From Ostreococcus lucimarinus (lineage: Eukaryota): DNA of 64,000 nucleotides. Made by a program: the position numbers and the translations under genes. This document shows positions 10,700-64,000 of this stretch, in pieces. The stretch lies in the NCBI GenBank assembly GCA_000092065.1, contig CP000591.1; one strand, given 5' to 3'. The notes below the pieces were generated by a model. The model had not been told where the DNA came from. It was given only the letters and a program-made list of their open reading frames with translations, and searched no databases. Position 1 is the first letter of the stretch. Every line of letters begins with the position of its first letter.

Positions 10700-10905
10700 A
10701 CGCGGCGACCGACCGACCGCACGCTCGCACTGTTTGCGCATACGCGCGTCGCGCGCAGACCTCGCCGCGCGCGTCGACGCGACCGCGCGACGCGACCGAA
10801 CGACGCGAGCGAACGAGCGACCGCGCGACCGCGCGAACGAGCGAACGACGCGAGCGAACGACGCGAGCGAACGACGCGACGAAACGACGCGACGAAACGA
10901 CGCCG
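10700..10905. repeat. degenerate 13-mer microsatellite (GAACGACGCGAGC)n in bidirectional promoter/5'UTR
   Basis: ...gaacgagcgaacgacgcgagcgaacgacgcgagcgaacgacgcgacgaaacgacgcgacgaaacgacgcc... lies between the divergent genes at 10626(-) and 10908(+). Confidence 0.6.
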
Positions 10906-14520: not shown

Positions 14521-15360
14521 CTAATACCCGCACAAATGCTCGTCCTTGAGGATGATGCCGAAGTGCGAGGGATCGCCGCCGGCGTCCTTGGCGCGCTCGG
14601 ATTTCGCGAAGGCTTCGCGCGCGTCTCGCTTGACTAAGTCTTTCCCGATCAACGTCTCGGTCGGTTTGCCGAGCTTTTCGCAACAATAAAAGACAATTTT
14701 GGGCGTGCGCTTTTGCTCGACGACGCGCAAACCGCACGCGCGAAGCAAACGGCTCATCTTCTCTTGCGACATGCGCGTGGACGCCGTGACGCAACGCAAC
14801 GGAAGCATCATAAAGAATAATCCTTTCGGACGTAAAAACGTCGCCGTGCGCGCGATCATCTCCCCCCTGAGCTCCGCCGTGGGCACACAATTCACCACCA
14901 TGCTCGAGTGTATCACGTCGTACGATTCAGCCTCCACGGGCATGTCAAAAAAATCCAACTGTTCAATCTTCGGATGCCGCGACTTGACGTCGATGGCGCG
15001 CACGTCTAAAAATTTCGCGCTCATCAAATCCGTATTGATCGCCCCAACCTCCAAAGTCTTAAGCGCGCGCTCTCCGCGCTTCGGTCGTCGATTCTTTTTC
15101 GTCAGCACGCTAAACGTCCACTTCGCCGTTCGATGTCTCCGCGTCGTCAGCGCGCTCGCCTCTTGATACGCGTCCCGTCCCCCGATCGCTTCCAGCGTCG
15201 CCTTCGCCCTCGCCTTCGCCTCTTTCGACGCCTTCGCGTCGTCCAACACTCGCGTGACGCCGTGAAACTCCGTCGTCACCGCTCGCGCGCGCTTCATCGA
15301 CTTCATCGACGCGAACAGCGGTTTCGTCGCCTTGCGCTTTTTCCCGCGCGGCGTCCCCAT
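14521..15360 (-). CDS. Bmt2/SAMTOR-like rRNA methyltransferase
   Basis: LEVGAINTDLMSAKFLDVRAIDVKSRHPKIEQLDFFDMP...VVNCVPTAELRGEMIARTATFLRPKGLFFMMLPLRCV resembles yeast Bmt2 (LNFVP...RGEML...FL...LPLPC). The start is taken at MGTPRGKKRK (15360); the upstream ORF portion is an Arg-rich run. Confidence 0.5.
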   Translation of the reverse strand: MGTPRGKKRKATKPLFASMKSMKRARAVTTEFHGVTRVLDDAKASKEAKARAKATLEAIGGRDAYQEASALTTRRHRTAKWTFSVLTKKNRRPKRGERALKTLEVGAINTDLMSAKFLDVRAIDVKSRHPKIEQLDFFDMPVEAESYDVIHSSMVVNCVPTAELRGEMIARTATFLRPKGLFFMMLPLRCVTASTRMSQEKMSRLLRACGLRVVEQKRTPKIVFYCCEKLGKPTETLIGKDLVKRDAREAFAKSERAKDAGGDPSHFGIILKDEHLCGY

Positions 15361-15649
15361 CGGTCGTCCCGCGTCGTCCCGCGTCGTCGTCCCGCGTCGT
15401 CGTCGCGCGCGCGCGATCGTTCGTTCGTTCGCGCGTCGCGTCGCGCCGCCGCCGTCGCGACGCGTCGCGCCGCGCCGCCGCCGTCGCGCGTCGCGTCGCG
15501 AAATCACACCGCGCGCGACGCCGTCGCCATCGGCCGCGCGCGGTCGACGACCCGCGCGCACTTCGCGACGCGACCGATCGATCGGTCGCCATGGGGAGTG
15601 CGTCGCGCGCGCCGATCGCGACGACGGAATCGCGACGCGATGACGCGCC

Positions 15650-20207: not shown

Positions 20208-22562
20208 TTACTCTTTTATAATGTGTTGCCCGATCGCGGCCCAAGACGTGGGGCCCGCGACGGGACGGCCGATGGTGACGCGAGTCGCTGCTCGCTTGCG
20301 TCGCCACGAAGGAATGGATCCAGGAGCCGACTGCGGTGCCGCTCGAAACTGTTGCGATTTCTTTGGCATCACCGCCGCACCAGCTTTGGCGACATTTGGC
20401 TGTTCGTACCATATTTCAGTGTCTTCAACCTTGACAGTCTGCTTGGCGCTCTTTTTGGGTGCCGCCGCGCTCGAGCTCGTCGGCGCTTTACGTTTACTGG
20501 CTGCGGACACTTTACCACCCTTGGACGCCGCAGCCTCGGCGGCGTCGTTTTCAGCCTCCGAACGATAGCGCCGAGCGTCGTATATACCGTATCTCCGGTC
20601 TTCAACGACTCGCCCACCCGCCGCGTCTGCGCCGTCGTTTTGAGAGGGCGCCGACTTTGCCTTTGGTTTTGCCTTCGACTTTGAAGTGGGTTGCGGCCTG
20701 ATCTCCTCTTCGATCTCCTCGTCGTCGACCAAATCTTCGTCGATTTCTTCGTCGTCTTCGTCATCGACTTCGTCGTCTTCGTCTTCGTCGTCTTCGTCTT
20801 CGTCGCCATCCATGGTGAAACTCTTCTCTAAATCGTCGTCGTGGTCAAAAGCTGCCGACGTCGTCGCTTTCGCGTTTGCCGCCGCATTGTTGTGTGCGCT
20901 GACGAGTGCTTCGGCAAACTCTGCGTCTACGGCCTCCAACGCCAGGCGCGCGTGCACGACTGCGGCGTTCGCGGCTTCAAGCTTTTTGAGCTCGGTGAGC
21001 AACACGTGTTCAATTTCGTGCATGGGAGGTAACCCAGCCTCGGCGAGCACCTCGTTTGCAATCCTCACCGCGCGTTCCTCCTCATCTAAATCGTCGTCGT
21101 CCTCGTCGCTATCTACGAGATCTTCGTCGATTTCCTCATCGCTGTCGTCGTCGTGATCCGTGGCGTCTTCGTCCACCGCCGCCTTTGGCCTCTTTTCGCT
21201 CGGCTTCTTTTCGCTCGGCTTCTTAATGCCCCGTTTCACCGCTTCGTGCGCTTCTGCCGCGGCTTCAGCGGCACGAGCCACCTCTTCGTCGTCGTCTTCG
21301 TCCTCGTGCTCGCCAAAGTGCAAGTACTTGTCCCAGTCGGCGGTGTCTTCGCCCTCGCCGTCCTCGTAGTACTCATCCTCCCCGTGCGCGCCCACGAGCG
21401 CCTCGTGCACGCGCGCGCGCGCGGACGAGTACACCGCTTCCGCTTCTTCTACGACCGTCTTCATCCTCGCGAGTTCGCTCTCGGCGTGTTCGACTTCGTT
21501 CACCATGCCCGCGCGTTTCGCCTTGAGCTGGGTCACCACGGCGTCCACGCCGGCGTCGAATTTTGCCTTGGCCCCTGTCGATGGTCGACCGACGCCTGCG
21601 ATTTCTTCGTACTCATCGTCCTCGTCTTGATCATCATCGTCGTGCCTGTGCCCGAACCTGGCTTTGAGCTTCTCCTTGGCGCTCATCGTCGGCGCGCCCG
21701 CGACGTTTGTCGTTCCGCCGCCGCCCTTCTTCGGCAACGCGTCTCGACTCACCGCCATCGTTTTCTTCCCCCCCGCGCCCTTCTTCGCGCTCGACGCACT
21801 CGCGCCTTTACCCTTCTTCGCATTCACCGCCGCATTCGTCTTCCTCGCGCTCGCCGCGCTCGCAGCTTTTCCTCCCTTCGCGTTCGCCGCGCTCGCCCCC
21901 CTCGCGCCGCCCTTGTCCGCGCCGCGTCCCGCTTTCCCTCCCGTCGCGTTCGCCGCGTTCGCCGCCTTCACCGCGGCTTTATAAGGCACCTTCGCCGCCT
22001 CATCCACGCGCAAGTGTTGAAACTTGATCAAATTTCGCCACTTATCCTTCAATTGCACCCCCGTGCGCGACCTGCGTTCGCGCCGTTCGTCGTTCGCCCC
22101 TCGTCAGTCCCCGCGTCTCCCTCTCGCCTCGTCCGCGTCGTTCCCTCGCCCGCTCGACGCGCCTCGCGCGCGCTCGCGTCCCATCCCATCGCTCGTCCCG
22201 CGCCGTTCGTTCGCGCGTTCGTTCGCGCGCGTCGTTCGTTCGTTCGTTCGCTCGCTCGCGTCGCGCGCGCACCGCAACGCCGCGAATTCCGGATCATTTC
22301 GCATCTTCTCCCACGCCCCGATCCCGTGTTTCCGCACCGCGCGCTTCAGCGCCTGTTCCTCCGGTGCCTGCCAGTACCCTCGCACGCCGCTCGCCTCGCG
22401 CGCCGTCGTCGCGCCGTCGTCGCGCGCCGTCGCCGCCGCCCCTCGCTTCCCCGCGCGCTTCCTCGCGTCCTCCTTCGCGCGCTTCGCGCTCGCGCTCGCG
22501 CCGCGCGCCTTGCCGCTCGGCACGGGCGCGGCGTCGCGCGCGCCCTGGGCCTTGGCCGCCAT
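20208..22562 (-). CDS. telobox single-Myb protein with H1-like AK-rich tail and acidic coiled-coil region (TRB/SMH-like), exons 22562..22273 and 22071..20208
   Basis: Exon 1 YWQAPEEQALKRAVRKHGIGAWEKMRNDPEFAAL gives the first two helices of a telobox Myb domain. Exon 2 starts (R)SRTGVQLKDKWRNL, the telobox signature LKDKWRN. Downstream come a K/A-rich stretch (KAAVKAANAANATGGKAGRGADKGG...) and long D/E-rich segments. The 201-nt in-frame intron contains a TGA, which is why the track shows two abutting ORFs in one frame. Confidence 0.7.
22072..22272 (-). other. spliceosomal intron (predicted, 201 nt, phase 2)
   Basis: Minus-strand donor CG|GTGCGCGCGCGACGCGAGCGAGCGAACG, branch-like GGACTGACGAGG, acceptor GAACGCAG|G. 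Splicing joins DPEFAAL-R to SRTGVQLKDKWRNL and restores the telobox Myb domain. The intron carries (CGAA/CGTT)n microsatellite-like runs. Confidence 0.7.
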
Positions 22563-22831
22563 CCCGGCGTCGACCGCGCGCGATCGGCGACGCGTCGACC
22601 GCGCGCGAGGCGTCGGCGTCTCGCGCATTCGCCGGCGGCGGGCGCGCGATGGACGCCGTGACGTCCTTTTTTCATCCCGTTCGCGTAGTCTACAATATAT
22701 GAACGACGCGCGCGCGCGTCGAAATCCGCGCGCGCGCGGCGCGCGGCGAATGCGCGACCGGGCTGAGTCACGACCGGTCGCGAGTCGCGCGGGCGTGGAT
22801 ATTCGGACACTCGGCGTGTGCGTCGAACTGT

Positions 22832-23923
22832 ATGCGCACACGAATGCGTCGGTCGGTCGGTCGGTCGGTCGGTCGGTCGGTCGCCGCGTCCGTCAGTCAT
22901 CCGCGCGCGGCGTCGCGTCCGCGCGTCGCCGCGCGTCGGCGCATGCGCGCGTGCGCGCGCGCGGTCGCCGCGACGACGGTCGCGGTGACGGCGGTGACCG
23001 CGCTCGAGGCCGCGGCGCTGACGGCGACGTACGTGACCGCGCCCGAGGCGCGCGGACCGCGCGAGGGACTCGCGCGGTACGACGCGGCGACGACGACGAC
23101 GACGACGACGACGCGGGGGGGCGCGATGCGCGCGACGCGACGACGGCGACTCGTCGCGGTCGTCGCGGGCGATAGCACGGCGTGCGGCGTGGGATGCGGG
23201 GACGACGGACGAGGACGGACGAGGGGCGAGACGGCGGCGGGGGAGGCGGGACCGACGCTCGCGCGCGCGTTCGCGCGAGGACTCGGCGAACGCATGACGG
23301 CGGACGTCGAGTGGCGCGCGCTCGGGTTTAAGGGCGCGGACGTGCGAGGACTGAGGGATAAGCTGATACCGGCGCTGCGGGAGGCGACGGAGGGAGCGGG
23401 GGGACGCGGAGACGACGACGACGACGCGAGCGAGAGGGACGGGCGCGGGCGACGCGCGAGCGTGGACGCGGTGGTGATCATGTGCGGGCTGAATGATCTG
23501 AAACACTCCATCGTGGGGCGACGGAGCGAGACGTTTCGAACCGAGCTGAGAGAGCTGGTGAGGGAGGTGCGCGACGTCGTCGGCGACGAGTGCGTGGTGG
23601 TGCTGCCGGCGACGCCGCTCGAGGCGGCGACGCTGTTTCCGCCGCCGTTGGCGTGGGTGGCGACGCGCATGAACGATTTGTGGGACGAACAAAAGGCGCA
23701 CGTCAGTCGACTGTTCGCCCACAACGTCTTGTTCGTTTCAAAGCCGAGTTTAGACGCCATGCGGGAACGCGCGGCGAAACACACCGGGCGCGTCGCGGAG
23801 AGCATCTCGCTGATTTGCGGGGATGGTATTCACCCCAACGACGACGGTTACGACGCCTGGGCGCGACACATCGCGGATGAGTGCGTGCCGAGTCTCGAAC
23901 GCGCGTTGGCGGCGCAAAAATAG
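22832..23923 (+). CDS. SGNH/GDSL-family hydrolase (esterase/lipase)
   Basis: Block I VAVVAGDSTACG, block III VVIMCGLNDL, block V GDGIHPNDDGYDAW. The N-terminus is uncertain: 22832, MRACARA at 22943 (followed by a hydrophobic signal-like AVAATTVAVTAVTALEAAAL), or 23126. Confidence 0.65.
   Translation: MRTRMRRSVGRSVGRSVAASVSHPRAASRPRVAARRRMRACARAVAATTVAVTAVTALEAAALTATYVTAPEARGPREGLARYDAATTTTTTTTRGGAMRATRRRRLVAVVAGDSTACGVGCGDDGRGRTRGETAAGEAGPTLARAFARGLGERMTADVEWRALGFKGADVRGLRDKLIPALREATEGAGGRGDDDDDASERDGRGRRASVDAVVIMCGLNDLKHSIVGRRSETFRTELRELVREVRDVVGDECVVVLPATPLEAATLFPPPLAWVATRMNDLWDEQKAHVSRLFAHNVLFVSKPSLDAMRERAAKHTGRVAESISLICGDGIHPNDDGYDAWARHIADECVPSLERALAAQK
22848..22886. repeat. (TCGG)9 microsatellite
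   Basis: tcggtcggtcggtcggtcggtcggtcggtcggtcg lies at the 5' end of the SGNH hydrolase ORF and promoter region, divergent from the TRB-like gene. Confidence 0.7.
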
Positions 23924-24023
23924 AGGACGAGCGCGAAACAGTAGCGACGGCGGCGAGGCGGCGCGCGTATTAATTGATTATAGCCCTATGAAATCTACCG
24001 GTAGTGAAAACGCAGCGCAAAGA

Positions 24024-24923
24024 TCACGCCAAAGCCTTGGCCGCGGCGCGCGCGTTGCCGATGAAGGCGGCGATCTTCGCCGCGTCCTTGACGACGCCGC
24101 CTTCGTCGGCGACGCCGCTCGCGACGTCCACGCCGGTGGGATTCGCCGTCTCGATCGCTTGCGCCACGTTTTCGGGGTTCAGCCCGCCCGCGAGTAACCA
24201 ACCCTTGCGCGACGCCCCGCGCGGGGCTTTGAGCTTGGACCAATCGAACGCCGTCCCGCTTCCGGCGTTGACGCCGTCGATCAACAACCAGTCCACCACG
24301 CGTCGCGGCCCGCTCACGAAATCAATCGCCGCTTTCCATCCTTGCTCCCCGCTCATGCGCTTCTGTCTTTCGGCGATCAACTTTTCTTCGTCTCCTGGGA
24401 ATTTGGAGACGATTTGCCCGTTCGCGTCGGCGTTGAGCACCCAAATCGCCTTCAAGCGCATCGGCAGCGTCTCCAACGCGTCCCGCGCGCCGTCGCCGTG
24501 CAATTGCGCGTGATCGCACCCGATCGCGTCGCACACGCGCGTGATTTCGCTCGCATCTTCGTCCACGAACACCGCCACCGGAACGGCGCCCTTCGCTTTC
24601 GCGCACGCCACGATCTCTTTCGCCGTCGCCTCGTCCACCGACCGCTTCGACTTTGGCCAGAGAATCATCCCAACGAAATTCGCCCCGTGCTCGCACGCGC
24701 TCTCGCAATCGCGCACCGTGGTGATCCCGCACACCTTGACGATCGGTTTCATCGACGCTTCGTCGCTCCCAGCGCGCGCGTTCGCCGTCGCGGCGCCGCG
24801 TCGCGACGCATCTTTCGTCACCGTCACCGCTCGGGACGTTCGCCGTTGCGTCGTCGATCGCGTCCTGGGCATCGCACCGCGAGCGCGCGCGGCGCGCGAC
24901 GGCGCGCACATCATCGAAGACAT
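24024..24923 (-). CDS. phosphoribosylanthranilate isomerase (TrpF/PAI) with organellar presequence
   Basis: KPIVKVCGITT...FVGMILWPKSKR...AVFVDE...WLLAGGLNPENV are PRAI family motifs. The Ser/Arg-rich N-terminus MSSMMCAPSRAARARG is a plausible plastid transit peptide. An alternative upstream ATG lies at 25007. Confidence 0.75.
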   Translation of the reverse strand: MSSMMCAPSRAARARGAMPRTRSTTQRRTSRAVTVTKDASRRGAATANARAGSDEASMKPIVKVCGITTVRDCESACEHGANFVGMILWPKSKRSVDEATAKEIVACAKAKGAVPVAVFVDEDASEITRVCDAIGCDHAQLHGDGARDALETLPMRLKAIWVLNADANGQIVSKFPGDEEKLIAERQKRMSGEQGWKAAIDFVSGPRRVVDWLLIDGVNAGSGTAFDWSKLKAPRGASRKGWLLAGGLNPENVAQAIETANPTGVDVASGVADEGGVVKDAAKIAAFIGNARAAAKALA

Positions 24924-33260: not shown

Positions 33261-33802
33261 TTACGCGGCGCACTTCACGCGACCCGCCTTGTTGATGGCG
33301 GAGATGCGAGCGAGCGCGGCTTTCTACGAATCGAACGCGTTTCGCGCACCCGTCAGTCATCGGATTCCGTCGCCGTCGCGCGCGCGCACCGCCTCCATCG
33401 TCGCGCGCGTCCATCCCGCGCGAACGTCCTGTCCCGCGTGTTACGCGTGTCACGCGCGTTACGCGTCGCGTCCTCCTCGAAAACCCTAAACGATCGCACC
33501 TCCAAGTCCGGTCGCGCCTTCGCCGCGATCTTCACCTCGCCCGCCTGCGACTTGAACGACCCGCACAATTTCTTCCCATCGCACGTCGCCGCCGGCTTCC
33601 CCTTCCCGCCGTCGTGCTCGCGAATATCGATCGTCTTCGCGTTCGCCAGCCCGCTCGCGCGGAACGACACCTCCGCGGTCACGTTGCCCGGTTCCGCGCT
33701 GAATCGCGCGCCGTGTCCGCTCGTCGACGCGCGCGTGAACGCGTTGTGTTTCTTCGTCACCTGCCACAGGAAGTCATCGCTCGCGGGGACGTGGGAGATC
33801 AT
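33261..33802 (-). CDS. RPL28: 60S ribosomal protein eL28, exons 33802..33500 and 33323..33261
   Basis: MISHVPASDDFLWQVTKKHNAFTRASTSGHGARFSAEPGNVTAEVSFRASGLANAKT aligns to human RPL28 ([44 protein letters not shown]). The unspliced reading frame turns to low-complexity sequence after RPDLE. Splicing gives RPDLE|KAALARISAINKAGRVKCAA*, matching [20 protein letters not shown]. Confidence 0.75.
33324..33499 (-). other. spliceosomal intron (predicted, 176 nt, phase 0) containing a telobox motif
   Basis: Minus-strand donor GAG|GTGCGATCGTTTAGGGTTTTCGAG, branch-like GATGACTGACGGG, acceptor TTCGTAG|AAA. The 5' end of the intron carries TTTAGGGTTT (plus strand AAACCCTAAA at 33482..33491). Confidence 0.7.
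33482..33491 (+). promoter_or_regulatory. telobox motif AAACCCTAAA in eL28 first intron (candidate cis-element)
   Basis: Exact AAACCCTAAA lies on the plus strand (TTTAGGGTTT on the gene strand), 8 nt inside the intron of the ribosomal protein eL28 gene. In plants, telo-boxes in ribosomal-protein gene 5' regions and introns are bound by TRB proteins (established knowledge). Function here is an inference. Confidence 0.3.
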
Positions 33803-34185
33803 CGCGTTCGCGCGTTCGCGTCGCGGAGAGACGGCGCGCGGCATCGGCGCGCGGGCGACGACGCGCTGGACCCTAATCACACTCGCGCGCGGCGCCGGAC
33901 CTCGCGTCGTTTCGCGAGACGCGTCGATCGACGCGACGCGACGCCCGCGACGCGACTTCCGCGCGCGACTTCCGAGCGAATTTTCGCGATGGCGATCGAT
34001 AAATTGATGATGATCTCGGGCGCGGGCACGGTGCGCGACGACGCGAACGCGCGAACGCGCGAACGCGCAAATTTGCAAATTCGCGATTTCATCGCGACGG
34101 CGGTGCTGACGCGACGTCGTCCGCGACGCGCGCGACGACTGACGACGCGCGGGCGCGCGCGCGATAGCTGTCCTACGGCGTGCAG

Positions 34186-51050: not shown

Positions 51051-52178
51051 TCACGCCGCGGCGGAGATCTGATTCCACGCGCCGTCCAAAGATTCCTTCC
51101 ACACCGTCACCGTGTTGTTCCCGTCGCTCACGGCGAGAATGTTGCCCATCGTGCTCCACGACACGCGCCACACCGGCGCGCCGAAATCGTGCAGCTCGCG
51201 CGATTGCCACGCTCCGCGCGGTTCGCTTTGAGTCCAAATGAACACCTTGCCGTCCTGCCCGCACGATGCGATGGTGTTCATGGGAAGACCCATGTTTTCG
51301 CTCCACGCGACGTCGCGCACCCAGTCGCCGTGCGCGCTCAGCGTGGCTTCGCATCCCCAAACGCGTCGCTCCTCGTCAAATCTCCAAATTTTCACCAAGT
51401 TGTCGCATCCACACGTCACTAAACGCTTGGCGTCGACGACGCTCGCGCCCCCACCCGCGCTCACCAGCGCCCCCGGCGTCGCCGCGGGCGCCCACGACAC
51501 CCCCGTGCACCCGATGGCGTGCGCGTTTGGAATCTTCTCCACCGTCCAGCTCGCTTGGCCGTCGTAGGAGATCACGGAGATCGACCCATCGCTCGACGCG
51601 CACGCCAGCTTCGCCCCGTACTCATGCGGCGCCCAAGCGATGGCGTTCACGCTCCCGTCGTGCGTTCCCGTCGGCGTCTGGTACGCCAGCGAAAACGCGT
51701 TCGGTTCCGTCTCCTTGTGCACGCGCACGTGATGATCGAAGCTCGCGCTCGCGAGCAGCGTTCCAAACTTCGGATGCGCCCACCTCGCGCTCCACACCGG
51801 TCCATCGTGTCCCGTGATCGTCGCCACGTGCGTCCCTCGCGCGCGATTCGCCTCTCCCTCGGTTCCGTTCGCGTCGCCCAGTCTCCCCCCCGCGCGATCC
51901 TCCGCGTCGCGCGCGCCGAGCGCGTCGCGCGTCCCGTTCGCCGCCGTCCCATCGCTTCGCCCGCGCGCGTTCGCTTCGCGCGTCGCGTCGCTCGATCGCG
52001 CGCCTCGTTCGCACTCGACGTCAAAGATTCGAATCGTTCGGTCGCTCGAGCACGTCGCGACGCGTCGTCCGTAGTAGTCGTACGCGCAGTCGTGCATCGC
52101 GTCGGCGTGGTGCGCGTCGAACGCGCCGTGCGTTCGCGTCGTCATCGCGAATGGTCGGTATCGCGACGCGCGAGTCAC
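51051..52178 (-). CDS. SEC13: SEC13 (WD40 COPII/nuclear-pore protein) with a ~55-aa low-complexity insertion
   Basis: HDCAYDYYGRRVATCSSDRTIRIFDV...ITGHDGPVWSARWAHPKFGTLLASASFDHHVRVHKE...SVNAIAWAPHEYGAKLACASSDGSISVISY...CGCDNLVKIW...AHGDWVRDVAWSEN...IASCGQDGKVFIWT...VWRVSWSTMGNILAVSDGNNTVTVWKESLDGAW is collinear with human SEC13 almost residue for residue. Confidence 0.85.
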   Translation of the reverse strand: MTRASRYRPFAMTTRTHGAFDAHHADAMHDCAYDYYGRRVATCSSDRTIRIFDVECERGARSSDATREANARGRSDGTAANGTRDALGARDAEDRAGGRLGDANGTEGEANRARGTHVATITGHDGPVWSARWAHPKFGTLLASASFDHHVRVHKETEPNAFSLAYQTPTGTHDGSVNAIAWAPHEYGAKLACASSDGSISVISYDGQASWTVEKIPNAHAIGCTGVSWAPAATPGALVSAGGGASVVDAKRLVTCGCDNLVKIWRFDEERRVWGCEATLSAHGDWVRDVAWSENMGLPMNTIASCGQDGKVFIWTQSEPRGAWQSRELHDFGAPVWRVSWSTMGNILAVSDGNNTVTVWKESLDGAWNQISAAA

Positions 52179-63301: not shown

Positions 63302-63660
63302 GCGGTGAAGCCTGTGGAGTAGAATTGCGAGTAATAGGAAATGTAGCGATGAATGCGAAACGATACGGCGCACGCGCGAGAGTATATGTGCATGAAACGA
63401 AGCGCGCGACGCCTCGTCGCGCCGGGACGCGAGCGTCACAGTGCCGTTTCTCGAGCGTTTTTTAGGCGTTTTCTCGTTTGCGCGATGTGACATTCGCGGG
63501 CGAGCGCGTGAAGATACACATGCGCGAACCACACGGGGATCGCGAATGAACGATCGCGGGCTAAAAATAGAAGAAACAGGAATGCAAAAAGATTCACCCA
63601 CGTCGCCGTCGACGTCCCGCGTCGTCTCCCAGCGCGTCGCCCCTCGAACGCGCCTCCCTG

Positions 63661-63700
63661 AAACTAGGGTTAGAAACTAGGGCTGAAAACTAGGGTTAGC
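63661..63700 (+). repeat. telomere-adjacent degenerate repeats (GAAACTAGGGTTA-like 13-mer x3)
   Basis: gaaactagggtta / gaaactagggctg / aaaactagggtta lie 155 bp proximal to the telomere array. Each has a TAGGGTT core related to the telomere unit. Confidence 0.5.
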
Positions 63701-63854: not shown

Positions 63855-64000
63855 TTTAGGGTTTAGGTTTAGGGTTTAGGGTTTAGGGTTTAGGGTTTAG
63901 GGTTTAGGGTTTAGGGTTTAGGGTTTAGGGTTTAGGGTTTAGGGTTTAGGGTTTAGGGTTTAGGGTTTAGGGTTTAGGGTTTAGGGTTTAGGGTTTAGGG
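63855..64000 (+). repeat. telomere array (TTTAGGG)n, ~21 copies, truncated by window end
   Basis: Perfect tandem tttaggg units from 63855, with one tttagg variant at 63862, to the last base of the window. The G-strand runs 5'->3' toward the end, as expected for a right-hand chromosome terminus. Confidence 0.95.

Follow-up and report, generated by a model that had tools for sequence, protein, structure and literature searches.

A stretch of 64,000 nucleotides from Ostreococcus lucimarinus (contig CP000591.1, assembly GCA_000092065.1), referred to below in its whole length as the window, carries on its minus strand, at 22562–20208, a gene whose product begins with a telobox-type Myb domain. We read the locus as a real nuclear gene, functional and with two exons, from a green alga of the Ostreococcus clade (Mamiellales), and its 717-residue product as a member of a separate, uncharacterised chlorophyte family that resembles the plant TRB proteins but does not belong to TRB/SMH. 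Its Myb domain makes the protein a reasonable candidate for a telomere or telo-box binder. An earlier interpretation of the same DNA, called here the sequence-only reading, had described a protein with a telobox Myb domain of the type seen in plant TRB/SMH proteins, split by an intron, and with a linker-histone-like tail, encoded near a telomere; some of this is borne out by the results below and some is not.

Gene model and conserved intron

The gene consists of two exons and one intron. The coding part of exon 1 (22562–22273, 290 nt) specifies residues 1–96 and two nucleotides of codon 97, which comprise the variable basic N-terminus and helices 1 and 2 of the Myb domain, and its 3' edge reads ...GAA TTC GCG GCG TTG CG. 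Exon 2 (22071–20208, 1864 nt) supplies the last nucleotide of codon 97 and continues to residue 717, followed by the stop codon TAA (20210–20208). Between the two lies a spliceosomal intron of 201 nt (22272–22072) in phase 2, of the form GTGCGC...ACTGAC...CGCAG, and the spliced protein reads ...GIGAWEKMRNDPEFAALR|SRTGVQLKDKWRNL... across the exon junction. Mechanical open reading frame (ORF) finding returns two ORFs in the same frame, 22841–22104 and 22058–20208, because an in-frame TGA (22106–22104) is contained in the intron. The sequence-only reading had proposed both the pair of abutting ORFs and an intron at 22072..22272 that splits the Myb domain and holds a TGA; the ORFs were recovered, and the intron had been placed correctly to the base, at a site shared with six relatives.

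The proposed start is the ATG at 22562 on the minus strand. A second in-frame ATG is present at 22628 (22626–22628), 66 nt upstream, and the N-termini of the orthologs are conserved neither in length nor in sequence, so that the translation start is uncertain between 22562 and 22628. About 135 nt upstream of the proposed start, at about 22693–22700, there is a TATA-like ATATATTG. Over its whole length exon 2 is 47–62 % identical to its orthologs (58–68 % over aligned columns), and for the nearest Ostreococcus-clade orthologs the identity is 55–58 % by BLASTP and 63–68 % over aligned columns.

The case for the intron is comparative and strong. It was compared in metagenome and genome contigs (L001, L004, L005, L007, L009 and L010), and the codon and phase of the intron are the same in all seven genomes, that is, in the window and six relatives. 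Its length varies from 91 to 330 nt: 201 nt in the window, 200 nt in L001, 238 nt in L004, 215 nt in L005, 330 nt in L007, 117 nt in the trebouxiophyte L009 and 91 nt in Ostreococcus tauri (L010). In every locus the split codon is followed by one residue and then by R-T-G-V-Q-L-K. All of the introns start with GT(G/A) and end with (C/T)AG, and all orthologous introns have CTGAC or CTCAC 30–45 nt ahead of the AG. The intron sequences are mutually unrelated and their lengths cover all three residues modulo 3. Nucleotide similarity between the window and L004 ends within 3–4 nt of both exon edges. L001 represents a strain that is 97.8 % identical to the window, and its sole indel across the gene is a 1-nt deletion inside the intron, which would therefore shift the frame if the 201-nt segment were translated.

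Annotated proteins agree with this model. The O. tauri ortholog (CEF99735.1/XP_022840002.1, 'SANT/Myb domain', 633 aa) shows precisely the splicing proposed here and reads ...EFIALRSRTGVQLKDKW... across the junction, or ...NDPEFIALRSRTGVQLKDKWRNL... over a longer stretch, and a second full-length model, P0358, has ...EFTALRSRTGVQLKDKW... at this place. Also contiguous across the intron site are the Elliptochloris protein, as annotated, and a peptide from a Pyramimonas transcriptome. From this comparison we conclude that the intron is real and old, and that it is older than the split between Mamiellophyceae and Trebouxiophyceae. The significance that had been attached to its length, 201 = 3 x 67, disappears: the lengths in relatives vary, with 200 nt in the 97.8 %-identical strain, and the multiple of three is thus a coincidence.

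A branch-site-like ACTGAC is located at 22103–22108 (minus strand), 31 nt before the 3' AG. The TGA of this putative branch point is the in-frame stop by which the naive reading is cut into two ORFs, and ACTGAC is also present in the O. tauri and L005 introns. The sense strand of the intron is poor in T, with 5 T in 201 nt. A T-poor sense composition rich in CGAACGA/GCGAGCG is common to 22072–22272, 10767–10895, 15356–15446 and 51873–52064; the sites with this composition are the Myb-gene intron, two 5' leaders and, in a gene for a Sec13-like WD40 protein, one intron. The 5' splice sites observed in the window resemble GTGCG. An introner element, a member of the repeated intron families of Micromonas and others, which have many near-identical copies per genome, was considered and rejected: in a search that covered the 64-kb window the best other matches were 70–80 % identical and of the low-complexity CGAACGA type, and the intron position is ancient. 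The Logan contig L006, in which the Myb intron is missing, was likewise rejected as a witness for splicing at the cDNA level. It comes from another species (82 % identical), and because a downstream intron seems to be kept in it, it is not distinguishable from an intron-less genomic copy.

Two other Logan contigs, L002 and L003, which are independent assemblies of one related species, break off within the intron, 45 nt before exon 2, and these ends suggest that the GC-rich, low-complexity intron may break short-read assemblies. ORFs corresponding to exon 1 only are a recurrent feature of marine metagenome contigs, many of which contain one. Among the contigs examined, prokaryote-style gene calling splits the orthologs at the intron, and the Myb domain is therefore missed or detected in part. 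The similarity of L001 (1–2051) to the window ends upstream of 22982, a break that could reflect either a strain-level rearrangement or a chimeric assembly. A (CGAC)n microsatellite is found at 22849–22885, in the divergent promoter region between the Myb gene and the GDSL-lipase gene.

Myb domain and the remainder of the protein

The Myb domain comprises residues 61–118 (22382–22008, minus strand, interrupted by the intron). Profile matches, solved structures and the predicted helices identify it as telobox-type, and its nearest named relatives in sequence are the plant TRB/SMH proteins. In Pfam the domain is matched by Myb_DNA-binding (PF00249) over residues 61–111 with 29.3 bits against a cut-off of 24.4; the match spans the exon junction and passes only after splicing. 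Myb_DNA-bind_6, the Pfam family that the sequence-only reading had named for the domain, stays below threshold (13.6 against 22.9). AlphaFold, given an alignment with 12 relatives, places the predicted Myb helices at residues 66–79, 84–100 and 104–113, with a predicted local distance difference test score (pLDDT) of 70–84. The recognition helix is VQLKDKWRNL, of which VQLKDKWRN fits the telobox pattern V-x-L-K-D-(K/R)-W-(R/K)-(N/T) and aligns with VNLKDRWRT of TRFa, VMLKDRWRT of TRF1 and IDLKDKWRN of SMH. Six members that span Chlorophyta all have the helix RTGVQLKDKWRNL.KF without change, and the net charge of the domain is +8.

In a PDB search of all solved structures, the best matches to the domain were telomere-repeat-binding proteins: zebrafish TRFa (39 bits, E-value 6.5e-9), human TRF1 (29 bits, 7e-6), Arabidopsis TRP1 (26 bits, 7e-5) and TRF2 (24 bits, 4e-4); c-Myb scored about 23 bits. 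Proteins of TRB/SMH type, which carry the H1/H5 globular domain GH1 in addition to Myb, were compared with the same program (phmmer) and the same database size, and 12 of 13 scored 46–55 bits and the 13th 38 bits. Several of the 13 bear generic names or none, and the informative names among them are 'single myb histone 4-like' and 'telomere repeat binding factor 1'. BLASTP against a maize protein with Myb and Linker_histone domains (SMH-type) gave 55 % identity over 49 aa in the Myb domain. On these scores we place this telobox-type domain closest to TRB/SMH. The N-terminal telobox Myb domain of the sequence-only reading is in this way confirmed by PF00249, by the TRFa/TRF1 and TRB/SMH matches and by the alignment of the spliced domain with telobox proteins.

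Residues 119–235 (22007–21657, minus strand) form a basic low-complexity region rich in A, K and G (29 %, 17 % and 16 %, respectively), with a net charge of +20. Residues 119–130 (...EAAKVPYK) are conserved, and the remainder keeps its composition, not its sequence, among orthologs. AlphaFold predicts residues 138–226 to be disordered (pLDDT <50), without a winged helix, and the spliced protein has no match to the Pfam Linker_histone domain even at E<=1. The protein has no GH1 domain. Of the K/A-rich, linker-histone-like tail and the D/E tracts that had been described together, the tracts are present, four in number and with up to 48 % D and 24 % E, and the linker-histone likeness is unsupported: the A/K/G-rich stretch is only loosely similar to an H1 tail, a resemblance of composition and not of homology.

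Two long alpha-helices, predicted with pLDDT >90 and conserved across Mamiellales orthologs, are located at residues 270–326 (21554–21384) and at residues 427–507, ...AGLPPMHEIEHVLLTELKKLEAANAAVVHARLALEAVDAEF... (21083–20841), both on the minus strand like the features that follow. Sequence similarity of these helices to the TRB coiled coil was not found. Outside the Myb helices and the two long helices everything is predicted to be disordered. The family signature motif GGRVVEDRRYGIYDARRYR (residues 582–600, 20618–20562) is invariant in Mamiellales orthologs and has its core, EDRRFGIYDxRRY, at residues 587–599. At the C-terminus there is a conserved basic block, WRRKRAATRVTIGRPVAGPTSWAAIGQHIIKE (residues 686–717, 20306–20211), near-invariant in orthologs, which reads WRRKRAATRVTIGRPVAGPTSWAAIGQHII over residues 686–715 and contains what may be an AT-hook-like GRP core. 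The helices, acidic tracts, motif and C-terminal block have no Pfam match, and a comparison of the non-Myb parts with solved structures gave only chance coiled-coil or low-complexity matches (E >= 0.025).

A family of chlorophyte telobox proteins

When 1.84 billion representatives were searched exhaustively with a profile, 3930 proteins were found at E<=1e-3. The search profile was built mostly from short Myb-region sequences, and the motif EDRRFGIYDxRRY was then sought by regular expression. Many of the top matches have an N-terminal Myb domain and, downstream of it, EDRR(F/Y)GIYDxRRY. All named members are chlorophytes: Ostreobium, Symbiochloris, Auxenochlorella ('CGL109'), Elliptochloris (WJX81_001039), Chlamydomonas (XP_001692275.1), Pyramimonas, Pycnococcus/Pseudoscourfieldia ('transcription factor MYB') and O. 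tauri. The motif is found downstream of the N-terminal Myb domain in members from Trebouxiophyceae, Ulvophyceae and Chlorophyceae and in those from Pyramimonas and Pycnococcus. No relevant paper was found for 'CGL109' in the literature. Many orthologs of the window gene are contained in marine metagenomes.

The family Myb signature GIGAWE...R(T/S)GVQLKDKWRNL.KF is present in the window protein, which shares with O. tauri CEF99735.1 and its relatives the form GIGAWE...RTGVQLKDKWRNLIKF, the phase-2 intron and EDRRFGIYDxRRY. Mamiellales orthologs have the same helices and C-terminal block as well, and on O. tauri chromosome 11 the gene order is also the same; the identity of the window protein to other Ostreococcus-clade orthologs is 55–68 %, low enough to assign it to a different species. 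The Mamiellales members lack the PHD finger, which the Chlamydomonas and Elliptochloris members carry, and the PLTxxE..NIxRN block, which is carried by Pyramimonas, P0013 and Elliptochloris sequences.

The linker-histone domain (PF00538) is present in none of the 62 best family matches and in 13 of the next 75, these 13 being TRB/SMH proteins. A PHD finger was seen in 6 of the 62. The regular-expression scan did not find EDRRFGIYDxRRY in the GH1-containing matches. We therefore do not count the protein among TRB/SMH: the window protein has no GH1 domain and carries the motif of its own family, and the intron of a TRB gene is at a different site. In that TRB1-like gene, from Drosera, the Myb intron lies between DLK and DKW in phase 0, whereas the window-gene intron is in phase 2 and 25 nt upstream, so that gene structure, compared with this one gene, gives no support for TRB orthology. 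The family Myb profile also retrieves proteins with 3–6 tandem telobox-like Myb repeats (P0178, P0179, P0182, P0233 and others), an architecture that differs from both TRB and the chlorophyte family.

TRBs have been defined as proteins with Myb, GH1 and coiled coil and are said to have originated in streptophyte algae, and the authors of that work call for a proper survey of Chlorophyta (PMC12616469). For unicellular algae, Ostreococcus and Chlamydomonas among them, Amiard et al. reported an absence of TRB orthologs (PMC11287191). In the tree of Fulcher and Riha, telobox proteins of O. lucimarinus and Coccomyxa are placed with Smh/TRB and are not described further (PMC4700174). Orthologs of the window gene with generic annotation, and Smh/TRB-like telobox proteins in these algae, have thus been noticed before; added here are the GH1-less architecture, the EDRRFGIYDxRRY signature, the conserved phase-2 intron and the spread of the family across Chlorophyta.

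Proposed function and comparison with known systems

The presumed cognate repeat of the Myb domain is found in the window itself. A terminal (TTTAGGG)n array (63855/63868–64000, plus strand), which is context and not part of the gene, has its G-strand running 5' to 3' towards the end. The sequence-only reading had noted telomere sequence about 41 kb from the gene, and the array, which extends to position 64000, is indeed 41.3 kb from the ATG at 22562. Its closeness had also been taken as meaningful, a view that we do not retain. In O. tauri about 44.7 kb separate the ortholog from the end of the chromosome 11 record (595,839 bp), and its orientation is the same (L010, CAID01000011.2, 546114–554106), and PRAI and GDSL-lipase genes are located upstream of the gene both in the window (20208–24790 region) and on O. 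tauri chromosome 11. Because the ortholog is similarly placed within the same gene order, the distance to the telomere represents inherited chromosome-end synteny. In the window a RING-box gene and an aspartic protease gene follow downstream, as they do in other contigs of the Ostreococcus clade, and the window looks like the homologous chromosome end of a sister species of O. tauri. The comparison of the window with O. tauri gave no evidence for a functional link between the gene and the proximity of the telomere.

Degenerate telomere-like repeats, AAACTAGGGTTAG and AAACTAGGGCTG, are present at about 63660–63700, some 150–200 bp inside the perfect (TTTAGGG)n array. Interstitial TTTAGGG and CCCTAAA occur in one copy each in the 64-kb window, against about 2.4–2.5 expected for each. 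The sole interstitial plant-type telo-box is AAACCCTAAA at 33481–33490, in the region of an eL28-like ribosomal protein gene (minus-strand ORF 33353–34078); one copy against 0.5 expected is by itself not significant. In plants telo-boxes are linked to ribosomal protein genes, and AAACCCTAA constitutes a single telo-box.

The explanation that we favor, and consider probable, is that this telobox Myb gene encodes a protein that binds double-stranded TTTAGGG/AAACCCTA repeats through the conserved arginine of its N-terminal arm and the recognition helix LKDKWRN. Removal of the ancient phase-2 intron joins Myb helices 1 and 2 to helix 3, and the domain would read the TTTAGGG/AAACCCTA duplex through R61 of the N-terminal arm and K105, D106 and R109 of the helix. 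These residues align with R380, K421, D422 and R425 of TRF1, which have DNA-contact roles in TRF1-DNA structures. The binding sites would be telomeres and any interstitial telo-boxes. The basic, disordered A/K/G-rich segment probably adds non-specific DNA affinity, and the two long conserved helices, as modeled, probably mediate self-association or partner binding. Single-Myb telomere binders need self-association, which is supplied elsewhere by TRFH or GH1; by analogy, the helices would fill the role of TRFH in TRF1/2 and that of GH1 and coiled coil in TRBs. Recruitment of chromatin partners is the probable task of the acidic tracts and of two short motifs, EDRRYGIYDARRY and the basic block at the C-terminus, and beside this proposal may be set the PHD finger that follows the EDRRYGIYDARRY motif in relatives from other green algae. 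The gene structure, the intron, the type of the domain, the family membership and the lack of GH1 are shown by the results above; DNA specificity, multimerisation, partner recruitment and any telomere function are inferred.

Several observations weigh against such a role. DNA binding, its specificity and localisation at telomeres are all predicted from the homology of about 55 residues. In Pfam the Myb domain also has a sub-threshold match to the SANT-like helix-turn-helix (HTH) of CHD1 (20.8 bits, cut-off 27), which makes a role in histone or chromatin contact possible. Enrichment of interstitial telo-boxes was not seen in the 64-kb window, where one AAACCCTA is found against 0.5 expected. 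The recognition helix does not track the exact repeat, since the Chlamydomonas members share the helix and the telomere repeat of Chlamydomonas is TTTTAGGG (PMC4924339). Nor is a telobox proof of telomere function, because the TRFL-group telobox proteins of Arabidopsis are dispensable for telomeres (PMC4700174).

With unchanged biochemistry and no role at chromosome ends, the protein could be an ordinary gene regulator at telo-box-like promoter elements, which we regard as a real possibility, though not the one that we would expect. In plants it is largely at telo-boxes in promoters, and together with PRC2, JMJ14 or the PEAT complex, that TRBs exert their action (PMC11287191, PMC10167121), the same recognition helix is found in algae with different telomere repeats (PMC4924339), and relatives have PHD fingers; however, telo-boxes are not enriched in the window, and no domain for activation or repression can be recognised in the protein. 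The Myb fold could also be, as part of a scaffold protein, a SANT-like module in contact with histones or nucleosomes and not a sequence-specific reader of repeats. Such a module would agree with the PHD fingers of the non-Mamiellales members, with the long acidic tracts, typical of histone-binding proteins, and with the weak CHD1 HTH/SANT-like matches in the window protein and most relatives. It is nevertheless unlikely, as the CHD1 match is under its curated cut-off whereas Myb_DNA-binding passes, the domain is basic (net +8), and its recognition helix retains the telobox residues that TRF1, TRFa and TRB have there. To our knowledge, SANT domains lack these residues.

The two remaining alternatives concern the identity of the protein and its existence. 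If an H1/H5 globular domain had degenerated into the K/A-rich stretch, the protein would be a true TRB/SMH ortholog of the Myb, GH1 and coiled-coil plan. Among named proteins TRB/SMH come closest to the Myb domain, the order of the parts (N-terminal Myb, basic region, long helices) is similar, and in the 2016 work of Fulcher and Riha the Smh/TRB group takes in telobox proteins from O. lucimarinus and Coccomyxa (PMC4700174). What makes this origin improbable is the lack of any Linker_histone match at E<=1 and the distribution of PF00538 (0/62 best, 13/75 next matches), together with the predicted disorder of residues 138–226 and their unconserved sequence among orthologs. The Myb intron of the Drosera TRB gene (DLK|DKW, phase 0) is also 25 nt from the chlorophyte site, the family has a motif of its own that the regular expression did not find in GH1-containing matches, and TRB-focused studies report no TRB in Ostreococcus or Chlamydomonas (PMC11287191). 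Hardly credible, on the other hand, is a locus with no intact Myb protein at all, either because the 201-nt segment stays in the message or because the two ORFs belong to distinct or degenerating genes. The segment is a multiple of three in length, but the site and phase are conserved while the lengths in relatives shift the frame, the O. tauri ortholog is annotated as spliced, and both exons are strongly conserved.

A wider suggestion may be made, tentatively and with the chances against it. The family with Myb, helices and EDRRFGIYDxRRY might be a GH1-less sister or forerunner of the TRBs and the main duplex telomere-repeat binder of green algae. If so, multimerisation, the task of GH1, would fall to the long helices, and TRBs would have arisen in early streptophytes by the gain of a linker-histone domain on an older telobox protein. 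The duplex telomere-repeat binders of the green lineage are still debated, and this locus presents a chlorophyte alternative, a TRB-type Myb domain without GH1. Since the Ostreococcus genome is very small, its family member would provide a compact system for asking whether an H1-less telobox protein binds telomeres or telo-boxes.

Among known systems, linker histone H1 likewise has a K/A-rich basic stretch after its DNA-binding domain, but it combines a GH1 winged helix with a very lysine-rich tail, whereas the window protein has no GH1 and its stretch contains only 17 % K and 16 % G. TRF1, TRF2 and zebrafish TRFa, the best solved-structure matches, have a three-helix Myb domain with LKD(K/R)WR(N/T) in helix 3. 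In TRF1/2, however, the Myb domain is C-terminal and TRFH serves in dimerisation; in the window protein the Myb domain is N-terminal, and Pfam gave no match for a TRF/TRFH-like region. The plant proteins TRFL/TBP1/RTBP1/NgTRF1 bind duplex TTTAGGG through a telobox Myb domain and are represented by PDB 2aje, 2ckx, 2qhb and 2roh at 21–26 bits, well below the 46–55 bits of TRB/SMH proteins. Their Myb domain is C-terminal and has a fourth-helix extension, while that of the window protein occupies residues 61–118 of 717.

The TRB/SMH proteins (AtTRB1-5, maize SMH1) likewise have a single N-terminal telobox Myb domain with the helix-3 core LKDKWRN. In both cases a basic region comes next, and after it a region of helices, which in the window protein are predicted and may resemble a coiled coil. 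Genes of both types have an intron inside the Myb coding region, but at a different codon and in a different phase. GH1 is present in TRB/SMH and absent from the window protein. The long acidic tracts, the EDRRYGIYDARRY motif and the conserved basic C-terminus belong to the window protein, none of them being a described TRB feature, and with 717 aa against about 300 aa it is more than double the length of a TRB/SMH protein.

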